Below, one piece after another: positions 34,041-54,648 of a stretch of DNA of 64,000 bases (the stretch's first letter is position 1; every line of letters starts with the position of its first letter). The DNA lies in the NCBI RefSeq assembly GCF_054482595.1, contig NZ_CM137008.1; one strand, written 5' to 3'. A program made the translations under genes and the position numbers. The notes under the pieces are model-generated. The model did not search any database and was not told the origin of the DNA. It saw nothing but the letters and a program-made list of their open reading frames with translations.

Positions 34041-34934
34041 ATGAAACCGCAGATTTACCACGTCGATGCTTTTACCTCTCAACCATTTCGCGGCAATTCT
34101 GCCGGTGTTGTTTTCCCCGCCGATAATCTTAGCGAAGCGCAAATGCAGCTTATCGCCCGCGAATTAGGTCATTCGGAAACTGCTTTTCTGCTGCACAGCG
34201 ACGACAGCGATGTGCGCATCCGCTACTTTACGCCAACGGTTGAAGTTCCGATTTGTGGTCACGCGACAGTAGCTGCGCACTATGTACGTGCGAAGGTGTT
34301 AGGTTTAGGAAATTGCACGGTCTGGCAAACATCGCTGGCAGGAAAACATCGCGTGACTATCGAAAAGCACCACGATGATTATCGTATTTCGCTGGAACAA
34401 GGTACGCCGGGCTTTGAGCCACCGCTGGAAGATGAAACACGTGCGGCGATTATCAACGCGCTTCATCTCACTGAGGACGATATTCTGCCAGGCTTGCCAA
34501 TTCAGGTGGCAACAACAGGACACTCAAAAGTGATGATCCCGTTGAAACCAGAAGTGGATATCGACGCCCTTTCGCCTGATCTTGCTGCGCTGAGCGCTAT
34601 CAGCAAACAGATTGGCTGCAATGGTTTCTTCCCGTTCCAGATCCGCCCAGGCAAAAACGAAACCGATGGTCGCATGTTCTCGCCTGCGATTGGTATTGTG
34701 GAAGATCCGGTGACTGGCAATGCCAATGGCCCGATGGGTGCATGGTTGGTACATCACAACGTATTGCCCCACGATGGCAAGGTGCTGCGTGTTAAAGGCC
34801 ATCAGGGGCGCGCATTGGGGCGTGACGGCGTGATTGAAGTGACGGTGACAATTCGTGATAACCAACCGGAAAAAGTCACCATTTCTGGCGCGGCGGTGAT
34901 TTTGTTTCATGCCGAATGGGCAATTAAACTCTGA
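34041..34934 (+). CDS. yddE: PhzF-family isomerase-like protein YddE
   Basis: 297-aa ORF; synteny between narV and nhoA. Confidence 0.85.
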   Translation: MKPQIYHVDAFTSQPFRGNSAGVVFPADNLSEAQMQLIARELGHSETAFLLHSDDSDVRIRYFTPTVEVPICGHATVAAHYVRAKVLGLGNCTVWQTSLAGKHRVTIEKHHDDYRISLEQGTPGFEPPLEDETRAAIINALHLTEDDILPGLPIQVATTGHSKVMIPLKPEVDIDALSPDLAALSAISKQIGCNGFFPFQIRPGKNETDGRMFSPAIGIVEDPVTGNANGPMGAWLVHHNVLPHDGKVLRVKGHQGRALGRDGVIEVTVTIRDNQPEKVTISGAAVILFHAEWAIKL

Positions 34935-34941
34935 AACCGTT

Positions 34942-35017
34942 GCCTGATGCGCTTCGCTTATCAGGTCTACAACCGAGCTAATGTATGCCGGATAAGGCGT
35001 TTACGCCGCATCCGGCA
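34942..35017. repeat. REP elements (two palindromic units) between yddE and nhoA
   Basis: gcctgatgcgcttcgcttatcaggtctac and gccggataaggcgtttacgccgcatccggca. Confidence 0.85.
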
Positions 35018-35029
35018 ACCTGACATAAA

Positions 35030-35875
35030 TTATTTTCCCGCCTCCGGGTGCGTATCAAACGCCGCCATCACCAGCGCTAACTCATCCACGGTTAAGCCAT
35101 GTTTCGCATCATCCACGCCCAGACCAAACTGTTCTTGCATCACAGCATATAATGACGCCACATCCGGTAGATTTCGCTGCTCCACCGCGTGCCCATTTTC
35201 ATAATGGGTAAAATGAAAATTGGTCAGTGTCAGCTTGCCGCCGTCCGGCAAATGGCGGCACATCAGCAAATGATGGCGAAAATGCGACTGCGGCCAGTGC
35301 GCCGACCAGAAATTGCCCATCACATAATCGCTTTGTTGCTGCTCGCAGAGATCAAAACGGTACATCGACTGCCAATGCTGATGATGATTAAACTGCAACA
35401 CCCAATCATCACCCTCCTGCAACAACCGATACTCTCCGTGTGGCGTGGTCTGCACGAGATCGGGAACTAAACGAATCGGCGCGGTTAGCGTCTGCCCACC
35501 GAAACCGACATCAGCAATCCATTTTTCCCCTTCCAGTTCCACCAACAGCAAACGATGGGTGCGCGGCGGTAATGCTGGCGGATTTGATAACACTACCCGC
35601 CCTAACAAGCTGCGAACGTTAAACCCCAGCTCGCGTAACACCCGCTCAAACACGCCATTCTGCTCAAAACAGTAACCGCCACGACGGGCTATCACCAGTT
35701 TCTCTTCCAGCGATTGATCATCAAGCTGTATTTCCCTCGGCAGCAAAACGTCGAGGTTTTCAAACGGAATGGTGCAATTGTGTTTCAGGTGCAATGCACG
35801 AAGCGTATCAATATTGACCGCAGCAGCTCCCGACCAGTTAATACGGGCAAAATAGTGATTCAGAATGGGCGTCAT
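35030..35875 (-). CDS. nhoA: Arylamine N-acetyltransferase NhoA
   Basis: 281-aa ORF MTPILNHYFARINWSG…; NAT family. Confidence 0.9.
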   Translation of the reverse strand: MTPILNHYFARINWSGAAAVNIDTLRALHLKHNCTIPFENLDVLLPREIQLDDQSLEEKLVIARRGGYCFEQNGVFERVLRELGFNVRSLLGRVVLSNPPALPPRTHRLLLVELEGEKWIADVGFGGQTLTAPIRLVPDLVQTTPHGEYRLLQEGDDWVLQFNHHQHWQSMYRFDLCEQQQSDYVMGNFWSAHWPQSHFRHHLLMCRHLPDGGKLTLTNFHFTHYENGHAVEQRNLPDVASLYAVMQEQFGLGVDDAKHGLTVDELALVMAAFDTHPEAGK

Positions 35876-36047
35876 CAGGCGTTTCCCTTAGTGGTTTTCT
35901 CAACTTATAACCTGGAATAGACGCCGCACCGGCTATTTTGTGCGATCGCGGACATGCATCACGTTCGCAAATCGCCAATCCCGTTAATTTCGTTACTTAT
36001 TGCGTTACGGACTACGCTTAAAAAAACCTTCTTCGCGAGGCGATACC

Positions 36048-36617
36048 ATGAGCCGATTCATCCCCATAGAATTACACCATGCCAGCCGTCTGTTAAATCA
36101 TGGCCCAACTGTCTTGATCACCAGTTTCGATGAGCAATCCCAGCGGCGTAACATTATGGCTGCAGCCTGGTCAATGCCGGTGGAGTTTGAACCTCCACGC
36201 GTGGCGATTGTGGTAGATAAATCGACATGGACCAGGGAGTTGATTGAACATAACGGTAAATTTGGCATCGTTATCCCGGGCGTTGCAGCAACTAACTGGA
36301 CGTGGGCAGTGGGAAGTGTATCTGGGCGTGAAGAAGATAAATTTAATTGCTACGGCATTCCGGTGGTGAAAGGTCCGGTGCTTGGTTTGCCACTTGTTGA
36401 AGAGAAATGCCTGGCGTGGATGGAGTGCCGCCTGCTACCTGCGACTTCTGCGCAACAAAAATACGACACGCTGTTTGGCGAGGTGGTATCAGCAGCGGCA
36501 GACGCACGGGTATTTGTCGAAGGCCGCTGGCAGTTTGATGATGATAAGCTCAATACGTTGCATCATTTAGGTGCTGGCACGTTTGTTACCAGCGGCAAGC
36601 GAGTTACGGCGGGTTAA
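36048..36617 (+). CDS. yddH: Flavin reductase-like protein YddH
   Basis: ORF 36000-36617; start placed at MSRFIPIELHH to give 189 aa. Confidence 0.8.
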   Translation: MSRFIPIELHHASRLLNHGPTVLITSFDEQSQRRNIMAAAWSMPVEFEPPRVAIVVDKSTWTRELIEHNGKFGIVIPGVAATNWTWAVGSVSGREEDKFNCYGIPVVKGPVLGLPLVEEKCLAWMECRLLPATSAQQKYDTLFGEVVSAAADARVFVEGRWQFDDDKLNTLHHLGAGTFVTSGKRVTAG

Positions 36618-36620
36618 GCA

Positions 36621-36848
36621 TTACATGCTGTAACCGGGTTTCTTTATCAAAGCCTCCATTTGGGGCGCGATTTCGGCATCCCAGATAGCTTGCCATGATT
36701 CTGGTTGAATCTGCTGTAGAGAAATGCTTATCGAGCTATCTTTACTGTTCAGATGGCGAATAATAACGTCGGTAATATCTGCAGCAAGTGCTGCTTTTTG
36801 TTGTTCGTCCAGTTCACGCGGAAAACATTTAATGTCGATGTGCGGCAT
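36621..36848 (-). CDS. pptA: Tautomerase PptA (4-oxalocrotonate tautomerase family)
   Basis: 75-aa product [12 protein letters not shown]… with the N-terminal Pro characteristic of tautomerases; within ORF 36621-36962. Confidence 0.85.
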
Positions 36849-37289
36849 GATTACGCTCCTTTTGAAAGATGTCAGTAAAATTAACACACATTGTGAATGT
36901 CGTATGTCCGGTGATGCGTTTTTACGACAATAATGCCTGCTTGAAATTGTAGATATTTGCACTACACCCTTTTAAATAAAGCACCAACAAATCGTCAACT
37001 TGCAGAACATATTCTTCTGCCTACATACCATTAAGAAAACATCAAGTTCCCGACTTGCCAATTTATTAACGCCCATTATAGACGCTGAAACAAGCTACGG
37101 ACAAAGGAGATGCCAAAATTACCGGCAATGCAGAAAAACTCAACGAACCATGGCTCTTTACCACAGCAGCCGGGGTTGTTTGGGACCGACTTCCGACAGC
37201 AGATCCCGGTGGGCCTGCCACCATCTCTTCACAAGTTTATGCTTATTACATGCAAAACGTCCCGTTTTGCATCTTTGTGCCTACGGCAC

Positions 37290-37400
37290 ACCGTGATCTT
37301 TCCCTGGTCCCTGTCCCGGATTGTAGTACCGGTGCCAGTTGTAGTGCAGTTCGGATTCGTCGTCATACTGCTAGCCCGGATGGCGGAGCAGTTGCTCTAG
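37290..37400 (-). pseudogene. Degenerate orphan Rhs core-end remnant
   Basis: Minus-strand translation QYDDESELHYNWHRYYNPGQG… parallels [22 protein letters not shown] at the end of the intact Rhs core, then hits a stop; DNA similarity to 38400-38480. Confidence 0.5.
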
Positions 37401-37442
37401 TCACTCAGAATATTGTAATAGTGATAGAGTGCAGTGCCGGTT

Positions 37443-37856
37443 TCAATATCCTAACGCTGGTCTTTTGCCTGTATTAACTGATTTAGCTGGTTTGCTACAT
37501 ATTAATGCCTTCAGATTTTCCCTTTCCTTGTCTGTGATACTGTCACAAACCCTACTAGCCCATTCTACTTCACTCTTCTCCAGGCATTCTATTTTCTTAT
37601 TGCTCATTGTTCTAATGTTTGGTGTTGCATCTCCATTTAATAACATCCATGTTTCATTTTTCTTCATAAAACATCTTCCATTATGTTCAAAGATATTAGG
37701 TGTGAATATATTATCAGAATCCCATGTTACGACTTGCTCGAGGGCTATATTATCTTGATAGTCCATGCCAGCATTATAATAATCACAAGATATAATTATC
37801 ATGGAAATAATTATCATGGAAATAATTATCACTAATATCTTCCCAAGCATTTCCAT
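37443..37856 (-). CDS. Putative Rhs immunity protein; predicted inner-membrane lipoprotein (137 aa)
   Basis: Start ATG directly abuts the rhs stop (…GTAAAGTAAATGGAAATG); signal peptide with lipobox IISC and Asp at +2; AT-rich like the Rhs C-terminal domain. Confidence 0.7.
   Translation of the reverse strand: MEMLGKILVIIISMIIISMIIISCDYYNAGMDYQDNIALEQVVTWDSDNIFTPNIFEHNGRCFMKKNETWMLLNGDATPNIRTMSNKKIECLEKSEVEWASRVCDSITDKERENLKALICSKPAKSVNTGKRPALGY
37792..37832. repeat. 15-bp tandem repeat (2.7 copies of ataattatcatggaa) inside the putative immunity gene signal peptide
   Basis: Seen directly; encodes the repeated SMIII segment of the hydrophobic core. Confidence 0.9.
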
Positions 37857-40800
37857 TTACTTTACCTCTTGAAATTCAAATGGGAATCCAGTGAAAGGAC
37901 CTTTAGGCATAATATATCTTTGATATCCATAAAGCTCACCGAGCACTTGTAGGCTTATAGGCGCATTTGTATTCATAGAGGGGTTGTTAAACCCGCACGC
38001 CTCAAAAATCATGTTCGTTCGGCTAAAACAATTATTTAAAACAGGAAGAGGCCCGAGGTTAATAGTTTTTAGTTTTTTATTAAGGTCTATTGCCTTATTC
38101 ATCATACATTGTTCTTCTTCATCTGTTGTATCTATTATCCAAATCCAGGTATCTCTGCGGGATTGTATCTTTTTAAAATAATCAGAGACAGAGGCTCCCA
38201 TCTCATCCCCAGTTCCCGAACTCATTAATCCATATCGATTTGCCGCCGCAGCATGCCCAAAAGGATTATCAGGAACGGGGCCGTTACCTATTATCATAGT
38301 ACTAAGCCCTAATGGATCAACGTGTTGCACTGGATTCAGCGGATATTGGTACAGATTCCATCCCCCCTTCAGCCCTATCGGGTCCTGAGTGATATACCGC
38401 CCCTGCAACGGATCGTAGTACCGGTTCCGGTTGTAGTACAGCCCCGACTCCTTATCATACTGCTGCCCCGGCAGCCGGTACGGCTGGTGCAGGTGATGCG
38501 GGTTCTCCTCATTAAGCTGGTTGCCCCATTCATCATACTCCGCGCTCCACGCCGTATTGCCGTCTTCACTGATAAGCGCCAGCGGCAGGCCCCGGTGGTC
38601 GCAGTGGTAAAGATGAACTTTTCTCGCCGGTGTGTATTCCGGCTCCATCTGTCTGGCCAGTTGCTCCACCGTCAGCCCGCACTGCGCAAGCCACGCCCGG
38701 CTTTCACTGCTCACGCGGTCTGCCCGGATTTCTTCCTCCAGTCTGTCCAGCAGCCGCACCAGTTCAGCCGGAAATACCACGCCGTGCCCGTCCTCGCTCC
38801 CTTCCTGCTGCATCTTCTCCGCCAGGCTGCGGCGCTGCGCTTTCTCCCGCTCGCCGTTCTCTGTCTCGCCCCGGATGAGCGGCGTGAAGCTTCCCGGCTC
38901 GTATACCGTCTGGATACGTGTGGTGTCAGTCTGCACCGTCGTCAGCCTGTCGCCGTCCCACCCGTACCATGTCTCCTCCGGTTTACGCGACAGCGACATC
39001 CATCCCGTCAGGTCACGCCCGCGACGCCACACCCGTTTCGCCATTCGCCGTCCCAGCGGGTCGTAGAGGTAGCAGCTCTCGACCAGTGGCTCGCCATGCT
39101 GTATCCGCGTGTAGAACACCAGGCGGTGCTGGCTGTCGTAGTGATAGTGGTGGGTGCGCTCGTCGTGCATCCGGATAACCCCTTCCGGGATACGGTCCGT
39201 CTTCTCCGCCAGCCTGCCGTATTCATCGTAGCGGTAGACATAGTGCGCATCTTCCGCGATGCGGTTATCCGGCCACGCCGTGAAGGTGCTGTCCGGGTGC
39301 AGTTCCGGGTCCGGCAGCCGGTTTCCTGCCGGGTCCGTCGCATACGGGATATCGATATCCAGGTTCGCTGCCGTGGTGTGGACGCCCGTCAGCCTTCCCG
39401 TGCCGCTGTAACGGTACTCCCGGCTCTCCTGCGGGCCGCTGATGCGGATTAGCTGTCCGTTGTCGTTCCAGTCGTAGTCATGGTCAAGCTGCGGAAGGTT
39501 CAGGTGCCTGCTCCGGAGCTGGCCGCTGGTATTCCAGGCGGTGGCAAGTTCATATGCCTCCCCGCCGAAGCTGCGGGCCGTCTCACGGTGCAGCCGGTCC
39601 CGCGTGTACTCGACCAGCGGCGTTCCGCCCAGCTTCATCCCCGCAAGATAACCGCTGCCATACGTCAGCCACTCCACCCGCGGCAGGCTGTCCGGCGTGA
39701 CGCGGTTTGCCAGACCCTGTTCGTTGTATGCGTGCTCTGTCTCATGCTGCCACAGCAGTTCCCCCGTCTCCGGGTTATGCACCGTCTGGCGTTCGCCGGC
39801 CAGGCGACCCTTATCATCATAACCGTAATGCACCGCCACCTGATGGCCTTCGCTCAGGTGGCTGATGTCTGTCAGCCAGCCGTGGCCGTCATACTGCCAC
39901 TGCTCTGCCGGTTCACCGTTCACCGTGCGGTGAGTGATACGGTCCGATTCGTCGTAGTGCCAGAGGGTGACAAGTCCCTCATCCTCACTCTGTGTGAGTT
40001 TTCCGGTCAGGTCATAATGATAACGCTGCGTCCGCCCGTCAAAGCCGCCCTGCTGTACCAGGCGGTCCAGCGCATCGTAGCTGAAGTCGCTGTGACTGCC
40101 GTTCTCGTTGGTCAGGCTGATGACACGTCCGGCAGCATCGTACTCCATACTGCGCGTCAGCCCGCCCTGCGTGGTGCTGACCGCCTTTCCCCACGCATCG
40201 TACTGTGTCTCGCTCCGGTTGCCGTCCGGGGTGATAACGGCAGTCAGGTCGCCTGCGGCGTTGTATTCATACCGCGTTTCACGGCCCTGTGCGTCTTTCA
40301 CCGAGGTTAACCGGCCACGGTTGTCATAGCGGCGGTAAAGGCTGATGCCTTCCTCGCGGTGGACCGCCGTCATCTGGCCGAAGCGGTCGTATTCATAGCG
40401 GGTCTGGTAGCCCGAGCAGTCGGTGAACGCCAGCAACTGACCGTAGCGGCTCCACGTCATCTGCCGGGTGCTGCCCGTCGCATCTGTTGTCGTGGCCGGT
40501 AATTCACTGTGCGCATCATCATAGCGGTAGCGTACTGTCTCCCCGCTGCGCGATGTCTCCGTTACCAGCCTGTCCAGTTCATCATATGCCCGGCGGCTCT
40601 CCAGCCCGTCCGGGGACACCACCGCCGTCAGCTGGTTCCCGTCGTTATAGTAAAATTTCGTCTCCCGCCCGTCCGGTGTGGTGATGTCCGTGATATCGCC
40701 GGACACCACATTCAGACCGTACTCTGTCCGCCGTCCCGCCGCGTCCGTCTGCGCCGTGAGCCTTCCTGCCGCGTCATACCCGCTGTGCGTGACGCTGCCA

Positions 40801-42062
40801 TCCGCCAGTTCTTTTTTCACCACCCGTTTCAGCCCGCCTTCACCTTCTGTATGCAGCACCTCACGCCGGTTCAGGCTGTCGGTGACGGTGATGCGGTCCT
40901 GCTCATACTGGTAGCGGTAACTCAGGCCTGCCGGGTTAAGCTGCTCCACCACCCGCCCGGTATCGTCGTAGCGGTAGCGCATCTCCGGCCTTCCCGCATA
41001 ACGGTGCCCCACCATCCGGCCCGGGTGCTGCGCGTCATACGTGAAAGCGCGCACCTGTGTCCCGCTGCGGTCATATACCGCCAGCAGTTCACCGGCTTCC
41101 GTATACGTGTACCGCGCCAGTGGCGCTCCGGGCAGGCTCTCCGGGTATGCCGGGTCGTGCATCAGCCACACCGCCAAAAGGCGGATACCCCTGTCGGGGC
41201 CGTATTCGGTACCGGGCAGTGTGTCGGGGAACGCTGAGGCTGAGAGAGGGCGGGAACGGTCAGAAGAAGATAGCGAAGAGGTGCGGGCCTCTTCCGCACG
41301 CTGCGCCTGCGTGGTCAGCACCAGACGGAACTCCCGCCCGGCACCGTCCGTCACGCCGGTGATTTCCCCGGCCAGGTCACCGGCGGCCTCACGCCGGTAC
41401 GTCAGCGTCCGCCCGAAGCGGTCCGCCATCCCGGTAAGCACCCGGTACGGCGGCAGCGGCGCTGGCAGTACGTCCTCAGCACCCGGCACCCGCTCAGACC
41501 ACCCCAGTATCCACCACGGCCCCTGTGCGCTGTTGGTCGCCAGGTAAAGATGCGGGCTTAACCGGATATCCGGCGGCAGCGACGCCCACAGCCGTGCCAG
41601 CGTATGGCCGTCCGGCTGCGTTGCCTTACCGCCACGCACCAGCCACAGGGACTCGCTGCGGCTGTACACCGCCTCACCCGGCAGCAGCGGCTCAAAGTGA
41701 ATGCTCCGTCCGCCGTTGTCGTTGAGTACCAGTGCATCATCGCGTAGCTGTAAGCGGATATCAGAAGGCGCTTTCCAGCCGGGGCCAAAAATCCCCACCG
41801 GTGCAGGCGTCTTCGTCCGGTAGCTGCTGTAGGTGCGGGAGAGAATGAACGGCAGCGGGCCGGGCAGCGCAAGGTCCGTCTCGCCGGGCAGCACCTTCGC
41901 CCCCAGTAGCGGGTTTACCGGGTTAGAATAGGTGATACCGCCCGGACACACCGAGCACGCCACACCGGTCGGCGCGCCTATCAGTACCCCCGCTGACCCC
42001 TGGACTATCGGACCGCCGTACTGGGTCATATCTCCCTGGCGTGCCGCTGGTTTTCCGCTCAT
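37857..42062 (-). CDS. rhs: PAAR-domain Rhs protein (1401 aa): N-terminal PAAR-like region, YD/RHS repeat core, DPLGL boundary, 148-aa C-terminal domain of unknown function (putative toxin)
   Basis: N-terminus [11 protein letters not shown]…; numerous YD repeats; core ends …[32 protein letters not shown] at 38304-38318; downstream CT (37860-38303) is AT-rich. Confidence 0.9.
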
Positions 42063-42129
42063 GATTCAAATTCCTTCTTCTGTTTATTTTTAATGCTGGT
42101 TTGTTACTGAATACCGAACAGGTACGGGA

Positions 42130-44238
42130 TCAGTACTCTCTCATATCCGGCGTATCCTGCTTTTCATCAGGTGTCTTCGGTGGGGATTTCGAGGCTGCAC
42201 AGTTCAAGTTAATCAACAGTGAGTCACCATTAACCTGCTCCTTACCCTGCAAATGAATTTTTGTGCCGTTGAGAAAAATTTGTCCGTCCTTCGTCAGCAC
42301 CAGCCTTGCCTTACCACAGCAGAGCTCCAGATGCTCCCCGGCAGAGTAAATCGCTGTCTGTCCGGTATCATCCTTCTTCGTTTTACCCACGGTGAAGGTG
42401 ACGTTATTTCCGACTTTAACGTCATATCCTTTCCCCACAAGCAGCGATTTATTTACCCCCACCTGCGAGGACTGCATCAGCGCCACCGAGGTGTTCATAA
42501 TGCCACCTACCGTCGTCTGATACGCCACGCCCACGGTCAGCGCACGAACAAGTCCAATCGTTTCCACCTGAACAGAACCCACTTTAATTATCTGGTTACT
42601 GCCCACCGTCTCTATCTGGTTAACACCCACCGTCTGTATCTGATTGTTGGTAACCGCAATCATCTGATTGTTGCCAATGGTTTCAGCATGGTTGTTTATC
42701 ACATCCGTGGTGCGGTTATTCAGCACCTCGGTGTTCATGTTCTTCTGCGCGTGGATGTAGACCTGTTCTTTCCCTGTCGCATCGTCAAACTTCAGTTCAT
42801 TAAACCCGCTGCCCTTATAGGTTTTCGAACGAATGGTCATCTGCGTCTTCGTCCCCGGCAGGCTGCCGGGGGTGCGGTTTTCCTGGTGGTAGGTACGCCC
42901 CATAATAATCGGCTGGTCCGGATCGCCGTTGAGGAAGTCCACAATCACCTCCTGACCCACACGCGGTATCGCCAGGTTGCCAAAGCCGGTGCCTGCCCAC
43001 GCCTGTGCCACACGGATCCAGCATGAACTGTCCTGGTTTGACGGGTTATAGCGGTCCCAGTTAAATTTCACCCGCACGCGGCCATGTTCATCACAGAAGA
43101 TTTCCTCGCCTGCCGGTCCCGTCACGACGGCGCTCTGCGGGCCGTCCACCATCGGTTTCAGCAACGGCTGTGGCCGCCATGTCCGGTCTGCCGGGATTAC
43201 CGCAAAGTGGTTATTCAGCGTGGTACCTGAACCACTGCGTCCCGGCACCGCCTGCGGCTGCTCGCCGTGCAGTTCACTTGCCACCACCTGCCATTCCCGG
43301 TTCAGGTTCGCCTGCGGATGCCCCGTCAGCGCAATTCGCCGTCCCGGCCATATCTCCGGAGAACGGCTTGTTCCGCGCGCCACTTCTGCGTTGTTTCGCC
43401 AGCCATCCATCTGCCAGCGGGCAAAGTTCTGCCCGTGGGCACCCTTGAAACGTCCGGGGTAGTCATACACTTCATACTGTGTGCGCTGGTAATCCTGGTA
43501 CTGGCCTTCCTGATCAAAACGCCCTGCCCAGCCGGGTCGTTTAAAGGTGTAGTCTTTGGTCACCACGGAAGAAGGGCGGATTTGTGCGCTGTAGCGAAAC
43601 TGGCTGATGCATAGGGTGCTCACCTCGGTACGGGTGTTCGGGTTCCAGGGGATCTCAAAGGACTCCGGCAGATAACGCACGGTGTCGCACAGGACCAGGC
43701 TCTGGTCGATACTTTTTTGCGCGTGCTCCTCATAAAAGAAGATGCCTTCCTCCGCCGCCATCCGGCACAGGAAATCGTAATCGGTTTCGCCGTACTGGAC
43801 ACAAAACTCACGGGAAGGATGTGGCTCGCTGAACAGCGGGCTCCACTCGGTAACCCCGTTTTCCTGCAATATCGTGCCGAGGATGCTTTCGATGTCCTCA
43901 TTCTGGAAGATACGGAAGTTCTGGCGCAGCCCTGTGCGCCACAGCGGTGGGCACACCTTCATGCTGTACAGCATCTGGTTTTTGTCGTTCTCCCCCAGTT
44001 CAAACCAGGTCACCATACCTTTCACCCGGCGCTGTACGTCATCGCCCTGCCATACCGTCAGGTAGGCCATTTTGTCCAGCACCTGCGCAAATTCAAGGGA
44101 AAGAAACTGCTGACTGACCAGAGAAAGGTCGAGGGAAAAAAGTGAAGAGAGTGACTGGGAGAGGTGAAAGGAAACCACCGCAAAAGCATCCGGTGGCAGG
44201 CCGTCCACTTCAAGTGTGAAACGTAATCCGGTTGACAT
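42130..44238 (-). CDS. vgrG: Type VI secretion spike protein VgrG
   Basis: Start placed at MSTGLRFTLEVDGLP within ORF 42130-44274; VgrG gp27/gp5-like sequence; 67 bp upstream of rhs. Confidence 0.85.
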   Translation of the reverse strand: MSTGLRFTLEVDGLPPDAFAVVSFHLSQSLSSLFSLDLSLVSQQFLSLEFAQVLDKMAYLTVWQGDDVQRRVKGMVTWFELGENDKNQMLYSMKVCPPLWRTGLRQNFRIFQNEDIESILGTILQENGVTEWSPLFSEPHPSREFCVQYGETDYDFLCRMAAEEGIFFYEEHAQKSIDQSLVLCDTVRYLPESFEIPWNPNTRTEVSTLCISQFRYSAQIRPSSVVTKDYTFKRPGWAGRFDQEGQYQDYQRTQYEVYDYPGRFKGAHGQNFARWQMDGWRNNAEVARGTSRSPEIWPGRRIALTGHPQANLNREWQVVASELHGEQPQAVPGRSGSGTTLNNHFAVIPADRTWRPQPLLKPMVDGPQSAVVTGPAGEEIFCDEHGRVRVKFNWDRYNPSNQDSSCWIRVAQAWAGTGFGNLAIPRVGQEVIVDFLNGDPDQPIIMGRTYHQENRTPGSLPGTKTQMTIRSKTYKGSGFNELKFDDATGKEQVYIHAQKNMNTEVLNNRTTDVINNHAETIGNNQMIAVTNNQIQTVGVNQIETVGSNQIIKVGSVQVETIGLVRALTVGVAYQTTVGGIMNTSVALMQSSQVGVNKSLLVGKGYDVKVGNNVTFTVGKTKKDDTGQTAIYSAGEHLELCCGKARLVLTKDGQIFLNGTKIHLQGKEQVNGDSLLINLNCAASKSPPKTPDEKQDTPDMREY

Positions 44239-45346
44239 AGCAACCTCCGTGAAAATGAATAATAATCCGCACATATTGCATGTACAACATGTCGGGCGGA
44301 TGAGATAAGCGAGTCGACATCTGGCGTTACCGGGGAATATCAGAAAAATGTCATGGTTATGTGATGATTTAGTCTGGGATTTTACTTCAGAGAAACGGGT
44401 GTCTGTTTAGTCAACAAAATAATCACAAACGCAACGGATGGGTTCTCGACGTTATTCACGACAGGCTCGTACATTACAGCGAGTAATAAAAAACCCGATA
44501 TGCAAAGTCAAACCAATATTCATAATGTCTTTTTATTCACAACAATAAATAATTTAATAACAATCATTGAAATGAATGATGATTTGTATAAGGAATATAC
44601 GCTACCGCCCCACCCTGATAACATGATCTGCACATTGCCATCTTAACGTCGTTAAACACTGGCTTAATAGTGGATATTTCAAATTAGGAATTTATTAAAT
44701 TCACCTGATGAATATCATAAGCAAATAGCATAGAAAATAATGACAACTCCCCCGAGGGGACCATTTCCAAAGCACTGCACCACCACCTGGTGCCCGGATG
44801 ATCTTGCTTCAGTGGTAAGAGTACCTGATTCATTGTTCCCAAAATGGTGTTTTCCCCTGCCCCTCCAATAATGTGCAGCTCTCACGTGATAATCTATTGA
44901 TTAGGTTATATTAAGAATCAATATTTAAAATACATCCATTTTCTTGAATAAATCAACATGTTTATTAATCAATTGCTGTTTTAGCTCTGACTCATCAAGC
45001 TCTCCATATTTGTCCTACAGATAATTGCGAATAAATACAGAGAACGCCATTTATCCTTTTAGCATACCTGCCGGATATTTTTATTTGTATTAATATTAAT
45101 TGCATCTCCAACTCCGAGCATATCCATCATTAAAAAAATTTTGAGATTATAGAATACCTGTGATAACAAGTGAAACATCTGCACAATGTGAATAGTTAGT
45201 TTCTTTTCAGAGGAAATGAAATAGACACGCTGAATGAAAGGGAGAGTGATATAAATTAAAAAACATAACGTGAATTTAATTAATTACGCCCATCATTGTG
45301 GATAAAGTTACTGAATAATAAATAACATAATCTTCTGGTATCCCAC

Positions 45347-45964
45347 TCAAATAATTTCATTCCTTTTTAGTATTTCTTGTAACGTTGGTAACTGACATAC
45401 AGCATCAGCAATCGCACTGATATTCGTGGCATTATCCTGAAACCATTCATGCCCAGGCCCCCATGTGCGCATAGTGCAAAGATAACAGTCCACCAGCGTT
45501 AGTTGCTCACCAAACGCATAAGGTTCAGCGGTCAATTGTGAATTCAGCCAGATATAAAGCGATTTACGATATTCAATAACATTCTTCTTTAACTGTTCGG
45601 GTGCGTCAGGAGCCCAACGCTCAGGGTAATCGGCGAAAGTGAATGTTGGATAGACATTAGCAACCAGCCAGACCAATAGCCGTTGAAACTGCTGACGTTC
45701 GGCGCGCCCAACCGGTGGCGCAAGGTCCGGGCGACGATCGAGAACCATCAATGCAATCGCCGCTGTCTCCGTCATAATCTCGTCATTTTCCAATGCCAGT
45801 GTCGGAACCTGACACAACGGGTTCAGGGTTTTCAATAACTCGCGTGAAGCTCCCTCGTGGTCAAAACCACTGACATCAACGAACTGATAAGGAATATCAG
45901 CCAGTGTTAGCATCAGCTCACTGATTGTAGAGCCCCATCCGGGTACGCCATACACCTTAATCAT
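45347..45964 (-). CDS. yncG: Glutathione S-transferase homolog YncG
   Basis: 205-aa ORF; GST-like N-terminal region; synteny next to ansP. Confidence 0.8.
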   Translation of the reverse strand: MIKVYGVPGWGSTISELMLTLADIPYQFVDVSGFDHEGASRELLKTLNPLCQVPTLALENDEIMTETAAIALMVLDRRPDLAPPVGRAERQQFQRLLVWLVANVYPTFTFADYPERWAPDAPEQLKKNVIEYRKSLYIWLNSQLTAEPYAFGEQLTLVDCYLCTMRTWGPGHEWFQDNATNISAIADAVCQLPTLQEILKRNEII

Positions 45965-46230
45965 ATGCCCCTCACAATCTTTTAAAGATTAAGTGTAGGA
46001 CAGTACACAGGTTAACCAGCAAAAGGATTTGTCATTTTTTCGTCAGTTGTATTAATCCCCTTCAGGATTGTAAGGGGATGTTTTGCATCGTTTATCGATA
46101 ACGGGTAGGATGCTGCGCCGATAGTTTTATACCCATAAAGAATAATGGTGATAACTATCATCGCCAGGATGAATAAACATTGTTCATGGCAACTTATATG
46201 ACTTTTTCATTAAAGCAATCAGGGAGAGCA

Positions 46231-47730
46231 ATGAGTAAACACGACACCGACACTTCAGATCAACACGCCGCGAAACGCCGCTGGCTTAATGCCCACGAAG
46301 AGGGGTATCACAAAGCGATGGGCAATCGCCAGGTACAGATGATCGCCATTGGCGGCGCGATTGGCACCGGCTTGTTTTTAGGTGCAGGAGCCCGACTGCA
46401 AATGGCGGGTCCAGCACTGGCACTGGTTTATTTAATTTGTGGCTTGTTTTCGTTTTTTATTCTGCGTGCATTGGGTGAGCTGGTGCTACACCGCCCTTCC
46501 AGTGGCAGTTTTGTCTCTTATGCCCGTGAGTTTTTGGGTGAGAAAGCCGCTTATGTTGCTGGCTGGATGTACTTCATCAACTGGGCGATGACGGGGATTG
46601 TTGATATTACCGCCGTCGCTCTGTATATGCATTACTGGGGTGCGTTTGGCGGCGTGCCGCAGTGGGTCTTTGCGCTCGCTGCACTTACCATCGTTGGCAC
46701 CATGAATATGATCGGTGTGAAATGGTTTGCGGAGATGGAGTTCTGGTTTGCGCTTATTAAAGTGCTCGCCATTGTGACCTTTTTGGTCGTGGGTACAGTG
46801 TTCCTCGGTAGTGGTCAGCCGCTGGATGGCAACACCACTGGCTTTCATTTAATCACCGATAATGGCGGCTTCTTCCCCCACGGTTTGCTGCCTGCGCTGG
46901 TGTTGATTCAGGGCGTAGTGTTTGCTTTTGCCTCCATTGAAATGGTGGGTACAGCTGCCGGAGAATGTAAAGATCCGCAGACCATGGTGCCTAAAGCGAT
47001 TAACAGTGTGATTTGGCGTATTGGCCTGTTTTACGTCGGCTCCGTGGTGTTGCTGGTTATGTTATTGCCGTGGAGCGCGTATCAGGCGGGGCAAAGTCCG
47101 TTCGTGACGTTTTTCTCTAAACTGGGTGTGCCATATATCGGCAGCATTATGAACATTGTGGTGCTGACCGCTGCCCTCTCCAGCCTGAATTCAGGTCTGT
47201 ACTGCACCGGACGTATTCTGCGCTCAATGGCGATGGGCGGTTCCGCACCGAGTTTTATGGCGAAAATGAGTCGTCAGCATGTACCGTATGCCGGGATTCT
47301 GGCGACACTGGTTGTGTATGTCGTCGGCGTATTCCTCAACTATCTGGTGCCGTCGCGCGTATTTGAGATTGTGTTGAACTTCGCGTCGCTGGGAATCATC
47401 GCTTCATGGGCGTTTATCATCGTGTGCCAGATGCGCCTGCGTAAAGCGATTAAAGAAGGCAAAGCAGCGGATGTCAGTTTTAAACTGCCTGGCGCGCCCT
47501 TCACTTCCTGGCTGACATTACTGTTTTTACTGAGTGTCCTTGTGCTGATGGCGTTCGATTACCCGAACGGGACTTATACTATCGCGGCGCTGCCGATTAT
47601 CGGTATTCTGCTGGTTATAGGCTGGTTTGGTGTGCGCAAACGCGTTGCCGAAATTCACAGCACTGCGCCAGTCGTCGAGGAAGATGAAGAAAAACAGGAA
47701 ATTGTGTTTAAGCCTGAAACGGCGAGTTAA
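46231..47730 (+). CDS. ansP: L-asparagine permease AnsP
   Basis: ORF 46180-47730; start placed at MSKHDTDTSD to give 499 aa; APC-family permease. Confidence 0.9.
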   Translation: MSKHDTDTSDQHAAKRRWLNAHEEGYHKAMGNRQVQMIAIGGAIGTGLFLGAGARLQMAGPALALVYLICGLFSFFILRALGELVLHRPSSGSFVSYAREFLGEKAAYVAGWMYFINWAMTGIVDITAVALYMHYWGAFGGVPQWVFALAALTIVGTMNMIGVKWFAEMEFWFALIKVLAIVTFLVVGTVFLGSGQPLDGNTTGFHLITDNGGFFPHGLLPALVLIQGVVFAFASIEMVGTAAGECKDPQTMVPKAINSVIWRIGLFYVGSVVLLVMLLPWSAYQAGQSPFVTFFSKLGVPYIGSIMNIVVLTAALSSLNSGLYCTGRILRSMAMGGSAPSFMAKMSRQHVPYAGILATLVVYVVGVFLNYLVPSRVFEIVLNFASLGIIASWAFIIVCQMRLRKAIKEGKAADVSFKLPGAPFTSWLTLLFLLSVLVLMAFDYPNGTYTIAALPIIGILLVIGWFGVRKRVAEIHSTAPVVEEDEEKQEIVFKPETAS

Positions 47731-47736
47731 TTGCAA

Positions 47737-47763
47737 AGTTGCCCGGCTACGTGCCGGGCAACT
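47737..47763. terminator. Bidirectional hairpin terminator between convergent ansP and yncE
   Basis: agttgcccggctacgtgccgggcaact inverted repeat. Confidence 0.65.
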
Positions 47764-47842
47764 TCAAATTACTGACGAAGGTGCCGGATACGGCGTGATC
47801 AAAGTCAGGCAAGTCTCTCCGTTATCACCCTCGCCATGTCTA

Positions 47843-48904
47843 TTACAGCGCAATACGAATCACATCGTCTGGCTGGGTAGCTTCCTGCTGTTTAGTGGAT
47901 TTTTGTTTCACACTGACATACAGCGTTTTGCCATCGGCAGACAGCGCCAGGCTGTTTGGATGAGTCGGCGTATCGAACGTTTTCACCACTTTATAGCTTT
48001 TCGCGTCAATCACACTGACTTTACCTGCCTGACGATGCGTTACGTAGGCTTCATTACGCGCTGAGTTAAACAGTACAGCCAGTGATTCCGGTGCCGCAAC
48101 CTTCGCCAGAATATTGCCATTACGGGTATCGACCACTAACACTTCTGCGGCTTTAGAATCGGTGATAAATGCACGCTGCCTGGCGGTATCAAGGCTAATG
48201 TTGATAAAGAAGTGCTCTTTGCCGTCATCCAGCAGCTTTTTACGGCTGAGGATTTTATTGTCGGCGGTGTCGATGGTAATCAATTCGCCGTCAGCGTTAG
48301 TGGTGTAAAGACGTTTGCCTTTGCTATCCAGCGCCAGACCGGTACTCATTTTACCGGTGTTCTGGATGGCGGTTTTCAGTTTGATATTCTCGCCATCAAC
48401 GACCCAAATCACGCTCTCTTTACCAATACCACTGATGTAAACGGTGTTCGTGGCATCATCAGCTACCAGCTCACGCGGTTGCAGCGGGCGCACCTCTTCC
48501 GTGCGCTTACGATCATCCAGCACCAGACGGCCTTTCACTTCGCCCGTTTTGGCATCTATCGCCGTGACCGCGCTGTTTACGGTGTTACCAAACCACAACG
48601 TCTGAGTCGTGTTATTGATGGTGGCACCAAACGGCTTGAGATCGTTATGGATCGCCTGCGTCACTTCCAGAGTGACCGGATCAAGACGATAAACCACGCC
48701 ACCTTTATCCAGTTTGCGGCTTTGCGAAGTGGCGAGCCACAGCGCGTTTTCTTGCTGGCTATAAGCCATTTCGTAGGCACCTTTACCTACCGCTTTACGC
48801 AGCATTTCTTCTGCGGCCTGCGTACTGAATGATGAAGCAACAAGCAATGAACCTAACAGTAATGAACCACGCAGGCGCAATGAAAACAGATGACGTAAAT
48901 GCAT
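47843..48904 (-). CDS. yncE: PQQ-like beta-propeller protein YncE (signal peptide)
   Basis: 353-aa ORF with N-terminal signal sequence. Confidence 0.85.
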   Translation of the reverse strand: MHLRHLFSLRLRGSLLLGSLLVASSFSTQAAEEMLRKAVGKGAYEMAYSQQENALWLATSQSRKLDKGGVVYRLDPVTLEVTQAIHNDLKPFGATINNTTQTLWFGNTVNSAVTAIDAKTGEVKGRLVLDDRKRTEEVRPLQPRELVADDATNTVYISGIGKESVIWVVDGENIKLKTAIQNTGKMSTGLALDSKGKRLYTTNADGELITIDTADNKILSRKKLLDDGKEHFFINISLDTARQRAFITDSKAAEVLVVDTRNGNILAKVAAPESLAVLFNSARNEAYVTHRQAGKVSVIDAKSYKVVKTFDTPTHPNSLALSADGKTLYVSVKQKSTKQQEATQPDDVIRIAL

Positions 48905-48985
48905 GACGACTCCCTTTGATGAACCGATATTTTTGCTGCTTCACAATGCTTCGCTAAGCGTAATCATCGTTACGCTCTTGTTATA

Positions 48986-49008
48986 AATGGGAATGGTAAT
49001 CATTATTT
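48986..49008. promoter_or_regulatory. Candidate Fur box in the yncE-yncD divergent region
   Basis: aatgggaatggtaatcattattt; the core tggtaatcattatt matches the Fur consensus tgataatcattatc at 12 of 14 positions. Confidence 0.5.
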
Positions 49009-49145
49009 TCTCAAATGTGGAGCATTTCTTGCCGTTACGACTACAATTTTCTCAATTACTTAACGTATTGTGCCGTTTCATTTTCCATAAATTTACAATT
49101 TCATTACCATGACGGCGTTTTCCCATTCTTAACCTGGCTTTTTTC

Positions 49146-51248
49146 ATGAAGATTTTTTCCGTCCGACAGACCGTTTTGCCCGCACTGCTTGTCCTTTCCC
49201 CCGTTGTTTTTGCCGCTGATGAACAGACCATGATTGTCAGTGCCGCGCCGCAGGTGGTTTCAGAACTGGATACCCCTGCAGCAGTAAGCGTGGTGGATGG
49301 CGAGGAGATGCGCCTGGCAACACCGCGCATTAACTTGTCCGAATCACTGACCGGCGTGCCTGGTTTGCAGGTACAAAACCGGCAGAACTATGCGCAAGAT
49401 TTACAGCTGTCGATTCGCGGATTTGGCTCCCGTTCCACTTACGGAATTCGCGGTATTCGCCTGTATGTGGACGGTATTCCCGCCACCATGCCCGACGGGC
49501 AAGGGCAAACATCCAACATCGATTTAAGCAGTGTGCAAAATGTGGAAGTGCTGCGTGGCCCCTTCTCTGCCCTGTATGGCAACGCGTCTGGCGGTGTAAT
49601 GAATGTCACCACCCAGACCGGACAACAGCCACCAACCATTGAAGCCAGTAGTTACTACGGCAGTTTTGGCAGCTGGCGCTATGGGCTGAAAGCAACGGGC
49701 GCAACGGGAGACGGCACACAGCCCGGCGATGTCGATTACACCGTCTCAACCACGCGTTTTACGACCCACGGCTATCGTGACCATAGTGGCGCACAGAAAA
49801 ATTTAGCCAATGCCAAACTGGGCGTACGCATTGATGAAGCCAGCAAATTAAGCCTGATTTTCAATAGTGTGGATATCAAAGCAGATGACCCTGGTGGGCT
49901 AACCAAAGCAGAATGGAAGGCGAATCCACAACAAGCGCCTCGTGCAGAACAGTACGACACGCGAAAAACCATCAAGCAAACTCAGGCTGGGTTGCGCTAT
50001 GAACGTAGCCTGAGTTCGCGGGATGATATGAGTGTGATGATGTATGCCGGAGAGCGAGAAACGACCCAGTATCAGTCAATACCCATGGCACCACAACTTA
50101 ACCCGTCACATGCGGGCGGCGTGATTACCCTGCAACGCCATTACCAGGGAATAGACAGCCGCTGGACACACCGTGGTGAACTGGGCGTTCCGGTCACGTT
50201 CACTACCGGCCTGAACTACGAAAACATGAGTGAAAACCGCAAGGGCTACAATAACTTCCGCCTGAATAGCGGCATGCCGGAGTACGGGCAAAAAGGTGAG
50301 TTGCGTCGCGACGAACGCAATCTGATGTGGAACATCGATCCCTATTTACAGACGCAGTGGCAGCTGAGCGAAAAACTGTCGCTGGATGCTGGCGTGCGCT
50401 ACAGCTCCGTGTGGTTTGATTCCAACGACCATTACGTTACTCCGGGTAACGGCGATGACAGCGGTGATGCCAGTTATCACAAATGGCTACCTGCCGGATC
50501 GCTAAAATATGCAATGACCGATGCCTGGAATATCTATCTGGCAGCCGGGCGTGGTTTTGAAACGCCGACGGTTAATGAGCTGTCTTATCGTGCTGATGGG
50601 CAAAGCGGTATGAACTTTGGTTTAAAACCATCCACCAACGATACAATTGAGATCGGCAGTAAAACGCGTATTGGTGATGGGCTGCTTAGTCTCGCATTGT
50701 TCCAGACCGACACCGATGATGAAATTGTTGTCGATAGCAGTAGCGGTGGGCGTACGACTTACAAAAATGCCGGAAAGACCCGTCGTCAAGGCGTTGAACT
50801 GGCATGGGATCAACGTTTCGCGGGAGATTTTCGCGTAAACGCGTCCTGGACCTGGCTTGATGCGACCTATCGCAGCAATGTTTGCAACGAACAGGATTGT
50901 AACGGTAATCGGATGCCAGGGATCGCCCGTAATATGGGCTTTGCGTCGATAGGTTATGTACCGGAAGATGGTTGGTATGCAGGCACGGAAGCGCGTTATA
51001 TGGGCGATATTATGGCAGATGATGAAAATACGGCAAAAGCGCCGTCTTATACTCTCGTCGGCTTATTCACCGGGTATAAATACAATTACCACAATTTAAC
51101 TGTGGATTTATTTGGTCGTGTCGATAATTTATTCGATAAAGAATACGTTGGTTCTGTCATTGTCAATGAGTCAAACGGGCGATATTACGAACCTGCGCCC
51201 GGACGAAATTATGGTGTCGGCGTGAATATTGCGTTGAGATTTGAGTAA
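49146..51248 (+). CDS. yncD: TonB-dependent outer membrane receptor YncD
   Basis: 700-aa ORF with signal peptide, plug/barrel composition and C-terminal aromatic residue. Confidence 0.9.
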   Translation: MKIFSVRQTVLPALLVLSPVVFAADEQTMIVSAAPQVVSELDTPAAVSVVDGEEMRLATPRINLSESLTGVPGLQVQNRQNYAQDLQLSIRGFGSRSTYGIRGIRLYVDGIPATMPDGQGQTSNIDLSSVQNVEVLRGPFSALYGNASGGVMNVTTQTGQQPPTIEASSYYGSFGSWRYGLKATGATGDGTQPGDVDYTVSTTRFTTHGYRDHSGAQKNLANAKLGVRIDEASKLSLIFNSVDIKADDPGGLTKAEWKANPQQAPRAEQYDTRKTIKQTQAGLRYERSLSSRDDMSVMMYAGERETTQYQSIPMAPQLNPSHAGGVITLQRHYQGIDSRWTHRGELGVPVTFTTGLNYENMSENRKGYNNFRLNSGMPEYGQKGELRRDERNLMWNIDPYLQTQWQLSEKLSLDAGVRYSSVWFDSNDHYVTPGNGDDSGDASYHKWLPAGSLKYAMTDAWNIYLAAGRGFETPTVNELSYRADGQSGMNFGLKPSTNDTIEIGSKTRIGDGLLSLALFQTDTDDEIVVDSSSGGRTTYKNAGKTRRQGVELAWDQRFAGDFRVNASWTWLDATYRSNVCNEQDCNGNRMPGIARNMGFASIGYVPEDGWYAGTEARYMGDIMADDENTAKAPSYTLVGLFTGYKYNYHNLTVDLFGRVDNLFDKEYVGSVIVNESNGRYYEPAPGRNYGVGVNIALRFE

Positions 51249-51256
51249 TTACCTTG

Positions 51257-51278
51257 ATGCCCGGTATTTTCCGGGCAT
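51257..51278 (+). terminator. Rho-independent terminator after yncD
   Basis: atgcccggtattttccgggcat hairpin. Confidence 0.65.
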
Positions 51279-51283
51279 TTACT

Positions 51284-51949
51284 TTAACGATTGTATTGCT
51301 GGTATAAAATAGCAATATTTTGTTGCATAATTTCAGCAAGACAATGTTTGCATCCCTCTTTGTCTTTTGCTTTTAACGCGGCGAGTAATAGACGATAGTT
51401 TTCTATACGCTCCCGTAATTCCGCTGGATTAATCTCTTCATAGAGATAATGTAAACCAGGTCCCATCCTGACCCACAGTTGTTCAATCATCTCACACAGG
51501 ATGGGCATATTTGAGCGATGATAAATCGCTAAGCGAAATAGCCTGTTTACATTAATGATTTGTTCCATGTCGCCCTTTTCTTGCGCCTGCTGTAATTTCT
51601 CGAGCAATTCCTGGAGTTCCGCCAGGTCTTGGGGGGTGAGGTGTTCAACAGCCAGAGCAACTGCCATTAATTCCAGTTCGTAGCGGATCCGATTGATTTC
51701 GTCTAATTGACGTTTCCCCACTTCCGGAACTGTAAATGCTTGCGCTGGTGCGACAGAAAGCGCATTCACCGAAACCAGACGTAATAATGCTTCACGCACA
51801 GGTGTAATACTCATACCTAATTGCTCCGCCAGATTTTTAGTAATCAGGCGTGCGCCAGGTTTTAGTGCGCCAATACTAAGCTGATGTTTCAGGTCGTTCT
51901 CAACCTGCAGAGTCAAACTGACATGTTTCATTTTTCCCGTTCCAGGCAT
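51284..51949 (-). CDS. mcbR: GntR-family transcriptional regulator McbR (YncC)
   Basis: 221-aa product from MPGTGKMKHVSL within ORF 51284-52006; N-terminal GntR HTH. Confidence 0.85.
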   Translation of the reverse strand: MPGTGKMKHVSLTLQVENDLKHQLSIGALKPGARLITKNLAEQLGMSITPVREALLRLVSVNALSVAPAQAFTVPEVGKRQLDEINRIRYELELMAVALAVEHLTPQDLAELQELLEKLQQAQEKGDMEQIINVNRLFRLAIYHRSNMPILCEMIEQLWVRMGPGLHYLYEEINPAELRERIENYRLLLAALKAKDKEGCKHCLAEIMQQNIAILYQQYNR

Positions 51950-52146
51950 TTTAATTCCTTCGCGTGTTTTCTGTCCAACCCTGCCTGCATGGCAGAAGGA
52001 GTTCACCTAGTGTATTAAAGTGAATAATCATAAACCACTCACCTTTGTTGTTATTAGCAGCAGAACAATGATGTGGTTAGTTAATTAAAGCTGAAAATAA
52101 GCTTTTTGCCTGGATTTTTATGGCGGCTTACGCCGCCGTTGAAACT

Positions 52147-53184: not shown

Positions 53185-53364
53185 AATGCTCTCCTGTGCT
53201 TTTGGCATGAATCCATCAATAGTAGCAGGCTCGCAGGATTGGTTTTGTTTGCAGCCGTCACACCCCCTCTGCAACACGCAATAATTTCATCGAGGAATCC
53301 GTTGCTTCGGGCTGTTTTCGATAGTATTGATAACATCATCATCATTATTTTATTGAGGCCAGAC

Positions 53365-53883
53365 ATGTCCATCCGTTTTGCCCGCAAAGCCGACTGTGCT
53401 GCCATTGCGGAAATTTATAACCACGCCGTGTTGTATACGGCGGCTATCTGGAATGACCAAACGGTGGATGCAGATAACCGCATTGCCTGGTTTGAAGCGC
53501 GGACCATAGCAGGTTATCCGGTGCTGGTAAGTGAAGAAGATGGCGTAGTGACGGGATATGCCTCATTTGGCGACTGGCGTAGTTTCGATGGTTTTCGCCA
53601 TACCGTGGAACATTCGGTTTATGTCCATCCCGATCATCAGGGCAAAGGTCTGGGGCGTAAATTGTTAAGCCGATTGATTGATGAAGCGCGAGATTGCGGG
53701 AAGCATGTCATGGTCGCCGGGATCGAATCGCAAAATCAGGCCTCGCTGCATCTGCACCAGTCGCTGGGATTTGTCGTCACCGCACAAATGCCGCAGGTGG
53801 GCACTAAATTTGGGCGCTGGCTGGATCTGACATTTATGCAGTTGCAACTCGACGAACGCACTGAACCGGACGCGATTGGATGA
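53365..53883 (+). CDS. mnaT: GNAT-family L-amino acid N-acyltransferase MnaT (YncA)
   Basis: 172-aa product from MSIRFARKADCAAIAEIYNH within ORF 53131-53883. Confidence 0.85.
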   Translation: MSIRFARKADCAAIAEIYNHAVLYTAAIWNDQTVDADNRIAWFEARTIAGYPVLVSEEDGVVTGYASFGDWRSFDGFRHTVEHSVYVHPDHQGKGLGRKLLSRLIDEARDCGKHVMVAGIESQNQASLHLHQSLGFVVTAQMPQVGTKFGRWLDLTFMQLQLDERTEPDAIG

Positions 53884-54563: not shown

Positions 54564-54648
54564 ACTTTCTCCTTAGCCACTTGTGAAATTTATCGATTCA
54601 TCCAAATGATATAAGTCTGCGTGGTGCCGTCAAGCCAGTGAGTAAGAT

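Follow-up and report, generated by a model that had tools for sequence, protein, structure and literature searches.

The Rhs tips of E. coli have been reviewed as type VI secretion system (T6SS) effectors (PMC6730261), and the vgrG-rhsE island of enterohaemorrhagic E. coli (EHEC) EDL933 has already been described (PMC7216683). Close points of comparison are also found outside this species. In Pseudomonas aeruginosa Tse5 (RhsP1), which is encoded together with VgrG1c and Tsi5, residues 1-47 form a 5-kDa 'PAAR-like' peptide required for secretion on VgrG1c, DUF6531 serves as the N-terminal plug, and the N-terminal fragment carries no membrane module (PMC10684867). In prePAAR effectors such as Tse6, RhsA of P. 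protegens and Rhs1 of Serratia, Eag chaperones bind the N-terminal transmembrane helices (PMC7773334). As for the toxin tips, Salmonella Tox-Act1 is a T6SS-delivered phospholipase that is active in the periplasm and needs His43 and Cys151. Phospholipase activity is also reported for TseH, and the homologues of Tox-Act1 include many Rhs fusions, among them one E. coli Rhs (CP057959.1) with a Pfam DUF4105 match (PMC12994826). The present analysis concerns the rhsE locus in a 64-kb stretch of E. coli DNA (contig NZ_CM137008.1, assembly GCF_054482595.1), called the window below; feature coordinates are positions in it. The locus is best described as a VgrG-Rhs module in the style of Tse5 that works independently of Eag and has a tip related to the Tox-Act1/TseH toxins but invisible to Pfam. 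We consider it likely that this intact RhsE element serves the type-2 T6SS, whose core genes lie at aspV, as an auxiliary ('orphan') effector module, that it combines a Tse5-like architecture with a lipid-targeting tip, and that its delivery has probably been lost in the clade to which the window belongs.

An earlier note on this DNA, made from the letters themselves, had described a complete vgrG-rhs-immunity module at the rhsE locus, and the open reading frames (ORFs) and domain matches bear this out (Table 1). The vgrG gene is present on the minus strand as the note had placed it, the 1401-aa rhs gene corresponds to an ORF at 37857-42062 on the same strand, and the 67-bp gap between the two contains no ORF. 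No terminator-like site was found in this gap. The interval assigned to the island, 36963-45346, was right in its coordinates and features; it also takes in yncH and 480 bp of debris next to pptA, which had gone unmentioned. The mosaic composition was found as described, the GC content rising from the AT-rich leader to 0.49-0.62 in vgrG and 0.60-0.69 in the Rhs core and falling to 0.34-0.42 in the C-terminal (CT) part and the immunity gene.

Table 1. Features of the rhsE locus, from the pptA side to the yncG side (window coordinates)
Feature	Position	Strand	Reading and basis
Debris between immunity gene and pptA, 480 bp	36963-37442	-	Rhs fragment, intron fragment and deletion scar
Immunity gene, 137 aa	37443-37856	-	Predicted periplasmic lipoprotein anchored in the inner membrane; lipobox IISC, Cys24, Asp at +2
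Rhs-CT toxin domain, residues 1254-1401, 148 aa	37860-38303	-	Predicted permuted NlpC/P60 papain-like fold
Rhs residues 48-1253	38304-41921	-	DUF6531 plug (47-123), YD-repeat shell, Rhs-associated core ending in DPLGL; Pfam, NCBIfam
Rhs residues 1-47	41922-42062	-	PAAR-like N-terminal peptide, predicted cleavage between N47 and P48; alignment to Tse5
vgrG-rhs spacer, 67 bp	42063-42129	-	AGAAGAAGGAA ribosome-binding site, no ORF
vgrG (tssI), 702 aa	42130-44238	-	T6SS spike protein; TIGR03361; Phage_GPD, Phage_base_V, Gp5_trimer_C
AT-rich leader	44239-45058	-	Presumed promoter region; GC 0.31-0.39; K-12 98% up to window 44306
yncH	45059-45280		Annotated gene inside the interval of the earlier note

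The body of the Rhs protein is readily classified. Residues 1-1253 match NF041261, 'RHS element core protein', with 2710 bits against a cutoff of 2000. Pfam finds DUF6531, RHS and 11 copies of RHS_repeat at E <= 0.001, and TIGR03696 covers residues 1176-1253, the last five of which (1249-1253) are the DPLGL motif. With its YD repeats, a core closed by DPxGL, a variable tip and an immunity ORF downstream, the protein is a Rhs polymorphic toxin. The closest solved structure is that of Tse5 (E 6.6e-120). P48 of the Rhs aligns to the residue with which the Tse5 shell chain 8cp6_B begins (Tse5 P48), and L1253 aligns to Tse5 L1168, the final residue of that chain. By analogy, self-cleavage is predicted after L1253 and probably also between N47 and P48.

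The likeness to the VgrG1c-Tse5-Tsi5 system (8cp6; PMC10684867) extends to the whole locus. In both, rhs comes directly downstream of vgrG without an Eag gene, a 47-aa PAAR-like peptide ends just before PVNP(M/L)LG(S/A)K, and a DUF6531 plug, a YD shell and a DPxGL self-cleavage site follow. Both carry a tip of about 150 aa that acts on the envelope and not in the cytoplasm, which for the window tip is inferred. The two systems differ in that the Tse5 tip is a pore-forming peptide, whereas the window tip is a predicted Cys/His enzyme, and in that one belongs to the Pseudomonas H1-T6SS and the other to the E. coli type-2 T6SS.

Two points of the earlier note need to be adjusted in this light. 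Its label 'PAAR-Rhs' is sound for the Rhs part and loose for the PAAR part: the Pfam PAAR_motif (PF05488) matches residues 3-28 weakly (E = 0.17, covering positions 22-50 of the 70 in the model), one PAAR repeat can be aligned, also weakly, to SalCis10 (9rce; E = 0.026), and the segment is a 47-aa PAAR-like peptide as in the N-terminal part of Tse5. The note had also presented the missing Eag adaptor as notable. No Eag or DUF1795 gene is present, as it had said. However, this is expected for a Tse5-like architecture and not odd, because the Rhs has no transmembrane segment (top Kyte-Doolittle 19-residue window 1.44) and lacks the strict prePAAR motif AARxxDxxxH, having Tyr in place of the His. 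Eag-dependent prePAAR effectors (PMC7773334) resemble the window Rhs as Rhs/PAAR T6SS cargo on VgrG, but they possess that motif, carry transmembrane helices at the N-terminus and are encoded next to a DUF1795 gene; none of these three features is present here.

The toxin tip gave no Pfam match even at E <= 10. Its close homologues are few and consist of Rhs fragments of E. coli, Salmonella and metagenomes. A profile built from 8 tip homologues nonetheless reached 335 representative proteins at E <= 0.001, of which 133 also pass E <= 1e-10; the majority of the 335 are C-termini located after an Rhs DPxGL motif. In an alignment of 31 tip sequences, His17 and Cys92 are invariant, as are N13, G16, G25, S28, G30, R50 and P115. 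The former two correspond to Rhs His1270 (codon 38253-38255) and Cys1345 (codon 38028-38030), the putative catalytic residues. Pfam Lnb_N was found at E <= 0.001 in only 1 of the 31 relatives, and the Pfam links are marginal. A profile relationship between the tip family and E. coli YiiX was tried and rejected (hhalign negative, probability 0.4). At the level of sequence profiles, the window tip shows no similarity that would place it with Lnb_N/DUF4105 or YiiX.

The AlphaFold (AF2) model of the tip, with a predicted local distance difference test score (pLDDT) of 80.8 and a predicted template modelling score (pTM) of 0.78, has a papain-like fold with the His before the Cys, which is the hallmark of permuted NlpC/P60 enzymes, a group that includes LRAT. 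A Foldseek search of AFDB50 matched it to proteobacterial Rhs C-termini and to DUF4105/Lnb_N proteins at E 1e-9 to 1e-4. As modelled, the tip folds like the permuted NlpC/P60 enzymes YiiX, TseH and MARTX RID. The assignment draws on the predicted fold, the order of the catalytic residues and the context, Tox-Act1 being compared through its published description. The tip is probably an envelope-acting toxin akin to Salmonella Tox-Act1, and probably a lipid-targeting one. The predicted permuted NlpC/P60 fold is shared with Tox-Act1, TseH, DUF4105 (Lnb) and YiiX (PMC12994826). The His-Cys spacing differs, however, being 75 in the window tip and 108 in Tox-Act1 (H43/C151), and no protein with His43 and Cys151 occurred among the tip's own matches. 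In contrast to Tox-Act1-type enzymes, the window tip has no Pfam Lnb_N match, and its activity is a prediction.

The immunity gene speaks for an envelope target. Its ORF begins 1 nt past the rhs stop codon. Ser-Cys-Asp is invariant in 9 of 9 immunity homologues, and the mature part contains 4 cysteines. Under the enterobacterial +2 rule, Asp at this position leads to retention in the inner membrane, and the lipoprotein is therefore predicted to reside there. A Salmonella homologue of the immunity protein sits directly downstream of the Salmonella tip homologue. After more distant tip relatives, a homologous lipoprotein, a membrane-anchored ORF or a two-helix membrane ORF is found. Such lipoprotein and membrane ORFs downstream of the tips support an envelope target. 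Searches of Pfam and NCBIfam with the immunity protein gave chance-level matches only, and its model (pLDDT 61.5) was too poor for a fold search.

Most Rhs tips act in the cytoplasm, and a papain-like fold could also belong to a protease or a deconjugating enzyme (PPPDE-like) working there. For this tip we judge such a role very improbable. The immunity protein, with its invariant lipoprotein signal and the cysteines of its mature part, would be exported, the Rhs N-terminus has no membrane-crossing module, and downstream of the toxin's relatives lie ORFs for membrane or exported proteins.

Whether an envelope toxin of this kind can be delivered depends on a T6SS encoded elsewhere, as the earlier note had pointed out; it had added that this could not be judged from the window. 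The dependence stands, and the window indeed contains no further T6SS gene according to the annotation of E. coli XH990, whose genome is 99.97% identical. Over the stretches compared, the XH990 chromosome differs from the window at 10 positions: 5 SNPs fall in window 1-36846 and 5 in 44846-64000, whereas 33500-49000 has none. The question of delivery itself is largely answered from such near-identical genomes. The search for T6SS core genes that the note had proposed was done in them and found all core genes annotated, with an internal stop in tssH. A type-2 cluster with every core gene annotated is present in XH990 and THO-010. In XH990 it lies between yafV and tRNA-Asp (aspV) and comprises its own rhs and vgrG, two hcp genes, tssB, C, E, F and G, tagH, tssJ, K, L and H, vasI, tssA and tssM. 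In its core, the window Rhs shares 76% identity with the Rhs of the cluster. The latter has 1470 aa and a tip unrelated to that of the window, and it is followed by an overlapping tetratricopeptide-repeat gene (L002 19005-20015, minus strand), presumably its immunity gene.

The longest ORF of the window vgrG spans 42130-44274. We favour the ATG at 44238 as the start, since it has GGAGG 7 nt upstream and is also the start given by RefSeq. Residues 7-517 match TIGR03361 (E 6.7e-189), and with the Pfam domains listed in Table 1 the protein is a VgrG/TssI spike. It shares 90% identity with the VgrG of the XH990 aspV cluster. The two differ hardly at all in residues 1-520 but diverge towards the C-terminus, a pattern that fits a shared machine with private cargo. 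A 24-bp tandem repeat in vgrG (42589-42642) encodes Val-Gly octapeptide repeats, and the window VgrG has one 8-residue unit fewer than its counterpart in the T6SS cluster.

In both XH990 and THO-010, tssH (clpV) carries a GAG to TAG change at codon 273 of 912, before both AAA+ modules (L002 38409-38411, equal to XH990 chromosome 3878408-3878410). Neither genome therefore has the 13 intact core genes (tssA-M) of a functional T6SS. With an 81-nt probe, the amber codon was found in 12 of the 5426 complete E. coli genomes and in no others, and these are the same 12 in which the rhsE locus matches the window at 99.3% or more. The 12 assemblies are independent and come from several countries and hosts. 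In EC1515 and D8 tssH is intact, and D8 also carries the toxin of the window. In each of the three lineages examined, the VasL-domain gene of the T6SS cluster bears the annotation 'frameshifted' (L002 46042-47452; L003, L008, L009) and is for that reason uninformative; the frameshift may be common to the species or may stem from the model used in annotation.

According to the summary given in PMC6730261, killing that depends on Rhs-CT3 was abolished in an E. coli clpV2 mutant. Taken with the amber codon, this suggests that delivery has probably been lost or much reduced in the window's clade, with toxin and antidote intact. A stronger version would make the module a stranded weapon, intact and undeliverable, with a truncated ClpV in its only T6SS, and persisting through its immunity gene or owing to the recency of the mutation. 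We regard the chances of this stronger version as evenly balanced. It is favoured by the place of the stop codon ahead of both AAA+ domains, by the exact coincidence of the amber with the locus allele in the 12 assemblies, and by the killing defect of the clpV2 mutant as summarised in that review, while the vgrG, rhs and immunity ORFs are without decay, which fits a recent loss. The stop codon might, however, be read through. Moreover, ClpV-independent residual T6SS activity is known in Vibrio cholerae.

Several observations weigh against the favoured reading of an intact module with a lipid-targeting tip and a probable loss of delivery. The tip has no sequence match in Pfam or the Protein Data Bank (PDB): searches of PDB sequences with the tip and with its family profile gave none, or spurious repeat-summed Protein A matches, and a Foldseek search of the PDB with the tip model gave nothing at E <= 0.001 (best E 0.44). 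The immunity protein of Tox-Act1 has two transmembrane helices, whereas that of the window is a lipoprotein. The tssH amber of the window's genome is inferred from near-identical sister genomes and not read in its own sequence, and that genome may contain a second T6SS; both points bear equally on the stronger version above.

The substrate is debatable as well, since TseH was originally proposed as a peptidoglycan hydrolase. If the tip followed that first proposal, it would be an amidase or endopeptidase, like those of the Tae families, and would lyse its targets through cell-wall peptides and not lipids; we think this unlikely. Alternatively, the tip could represent a separate, unnamed branch of permuted NlpC/P60 toxins (about 335 representative clusters, nearly all of them Rhs C-termini) that Pfam does not see. 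In place of bulk phospholipid, its substrate might be some other envelope component bearing acyl chains: lipid A, for example, or lipoproteins, on which the related Lnb N-acyltransferase acts. This remains a doubtful proposition to us. If true, it would mean a new T6SS toxin activity, on a non-phospholipid acylated substrate, in about 10% of E. coli.

Under the reading favoured here, with membrane lipids as the probable target, the module may work as follows. The vgrG, rhs and immunity genes would be read as one minus-strand unit from the AT-rich leader. The VgrG trimer would join the aspV-encoded machine through its conserved N-terminal 520 residues, and its divergent C-terminus would bind its own Rhs through the 47-aa PAAR-like peptide, as suggested by Tse5/VgrG1c. 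The Rhs shell would enclose the 148-aa toxin and cut itself after L1253 and probably at the N-terminal site too, as the Tse5 alignment indicates. An Eag chaperone, which is absent, would not be needed for an effector without a transmembrane segment. After firing, the toxin would act from the periplasmic side of the target envelope as a permuted NlpC/P60 enzyme with His1270 and Cys1345, and judging from the modelled fold and residues it would most likely cleave or transfer acyl chains of membrane lipids, like Tox-Act1 and TseH. Sister cells would be protected by the inner-membrane lipoprotein encoded directly downstream. In the window's clade, with tssH/clpV cut by the amber codon, delivery would probably be lost or much reduced and immunity kept.

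The locus as a whole is not exceptional within the species. The earlier note had implied that it was unusual in comparison with K-12. A 9.5-kb query from yddH to yncG was searched in the complete E. coli genomes, with at least 80% matching in one place as the criterion, and 2537 of 5426 genomes (47%) match, which makes the locus an ordinary one. What the note had said of K-12, a truncated rhsE pseudogene and ydcD at this position, is correct; K-12 has yncG, yncH, an rhsE pseudogene, ydcD, yncI, ydcC and pptA. In the alignment with K-12 that it had proposed, K-12 aligns to window 44306-46000 at 98.2%. K-12 keeps yncG, yncH and the leader to window 44306 and then jumps into the rhs core; it is without window 39855-44305, that is, vgrG and the 5' 2.2 kb of rhs. 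Its tip and immunity gene (ydcD) differ from those of the window. As judged from this alignment, K-12 is a deletion derivative, a derived remnant of the intact element. With a chimeric pptA+yncG probe, no empty pptA-yncG site free of insertion sequences (IS) was found in the 5426 genomes. The two genes lie close together in only 7 genomes, from which the intervening region has been lost, and IS1 is annotated under the match in all 7. Since the only near-empty sites bear IS1, the ends of the island cannot be set by within-species comparison. The prevalence, the lack of a natural empty site and the deletion in K-12 indicate that the element is an old resident of the species.

Other E. coli RhsE/vgrG islands, such as vgrG2-rhsE of EHEC EDL933 (PMC7216683), share the chromosomal site, the gene order and the NF041261 core family. 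They differ in the tip/immunity pair, which varies between strains; the toxin-immunity DNA of the window is present in 566 of 5426 genomes (about 10%). Among the matches listed, the copies outside the clade have 846 bp, compared with 861 bp in the window. The size difference is a perfect 15-bp tandem duplication (2.7 copies, 37792-37831), which adds IISMI to the hydrophobic core of the signal peptide of the immunity protein and is found in 0 of 8 other aligned immunity homologues. A 'vgrE-RhsE' was reportedly described by the Hill laboratory in 1998; a literature search for vgrE/RhsE gave unrelated papers only.

The debris next to pptA records part of this history. Downstream of the immunity gene, at about 37300-37400 on the minus strand, lies a degenerate fragment of a Rhs core end that contains a stop codon (minus-strand read ..YDDESELHYNWHRYYNPGQG.. 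/ ..QYDDESELHYNWHRYYNPGQG..). An earlier exchange of tips probably left it behind. A fragment of a group II intron (D1-D4) is found at 37117-37222 on the same strand (Rfam RF01999, 49.2 bits, E 8.9e-08). Compared with strain EC1515, 2990 bp are missing (L011 956-3944); they contain ydcC, which encodes the ISAs1/H-repeat transposase, and ltrA, an intron gene in decay. The deletion scar lies at about 37147-37154, and the alignments of the window with EC1515 overlap by 8 bp at the junction. The RF01999 match seems to cross this junction.

At the other end of the island, promoter-like hexamers occur in the leader on the minus strand at 44621-44594 and 44286-44259 as consensus matches only; a scan for promoters and terminators gave consensus-level sites throughout and was uninformative. 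According to the XH990 annotation, the window extends from gadC to rlhA. It contains a frameshifted hicA-type mRNA interferase gene beside hicB (62749-62903, minus strand) and yddL as a truncated porin pseudogene (23856-24131, plus strand). An intact gene for a leucine-rich-repeat protein lies at 24170-25501.

The locus itself teaches little, as it shows what this site normally looks like where, unlike in K-12, it has not been deleted. Its tip is of some interest. The lipid-targeting class to which it probably belongs was not characterised until 2026. This tip is carried by roughly one E. coli in ten, and current domain libraries miss it. Being invisible to Pfam, it will be scored as 'unknown' in Pfam-based effector surveys. 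Furthermore, an intact effector island need not mean a working weapon, and the window's clade would be a natural example of immunity kept and attack lost.

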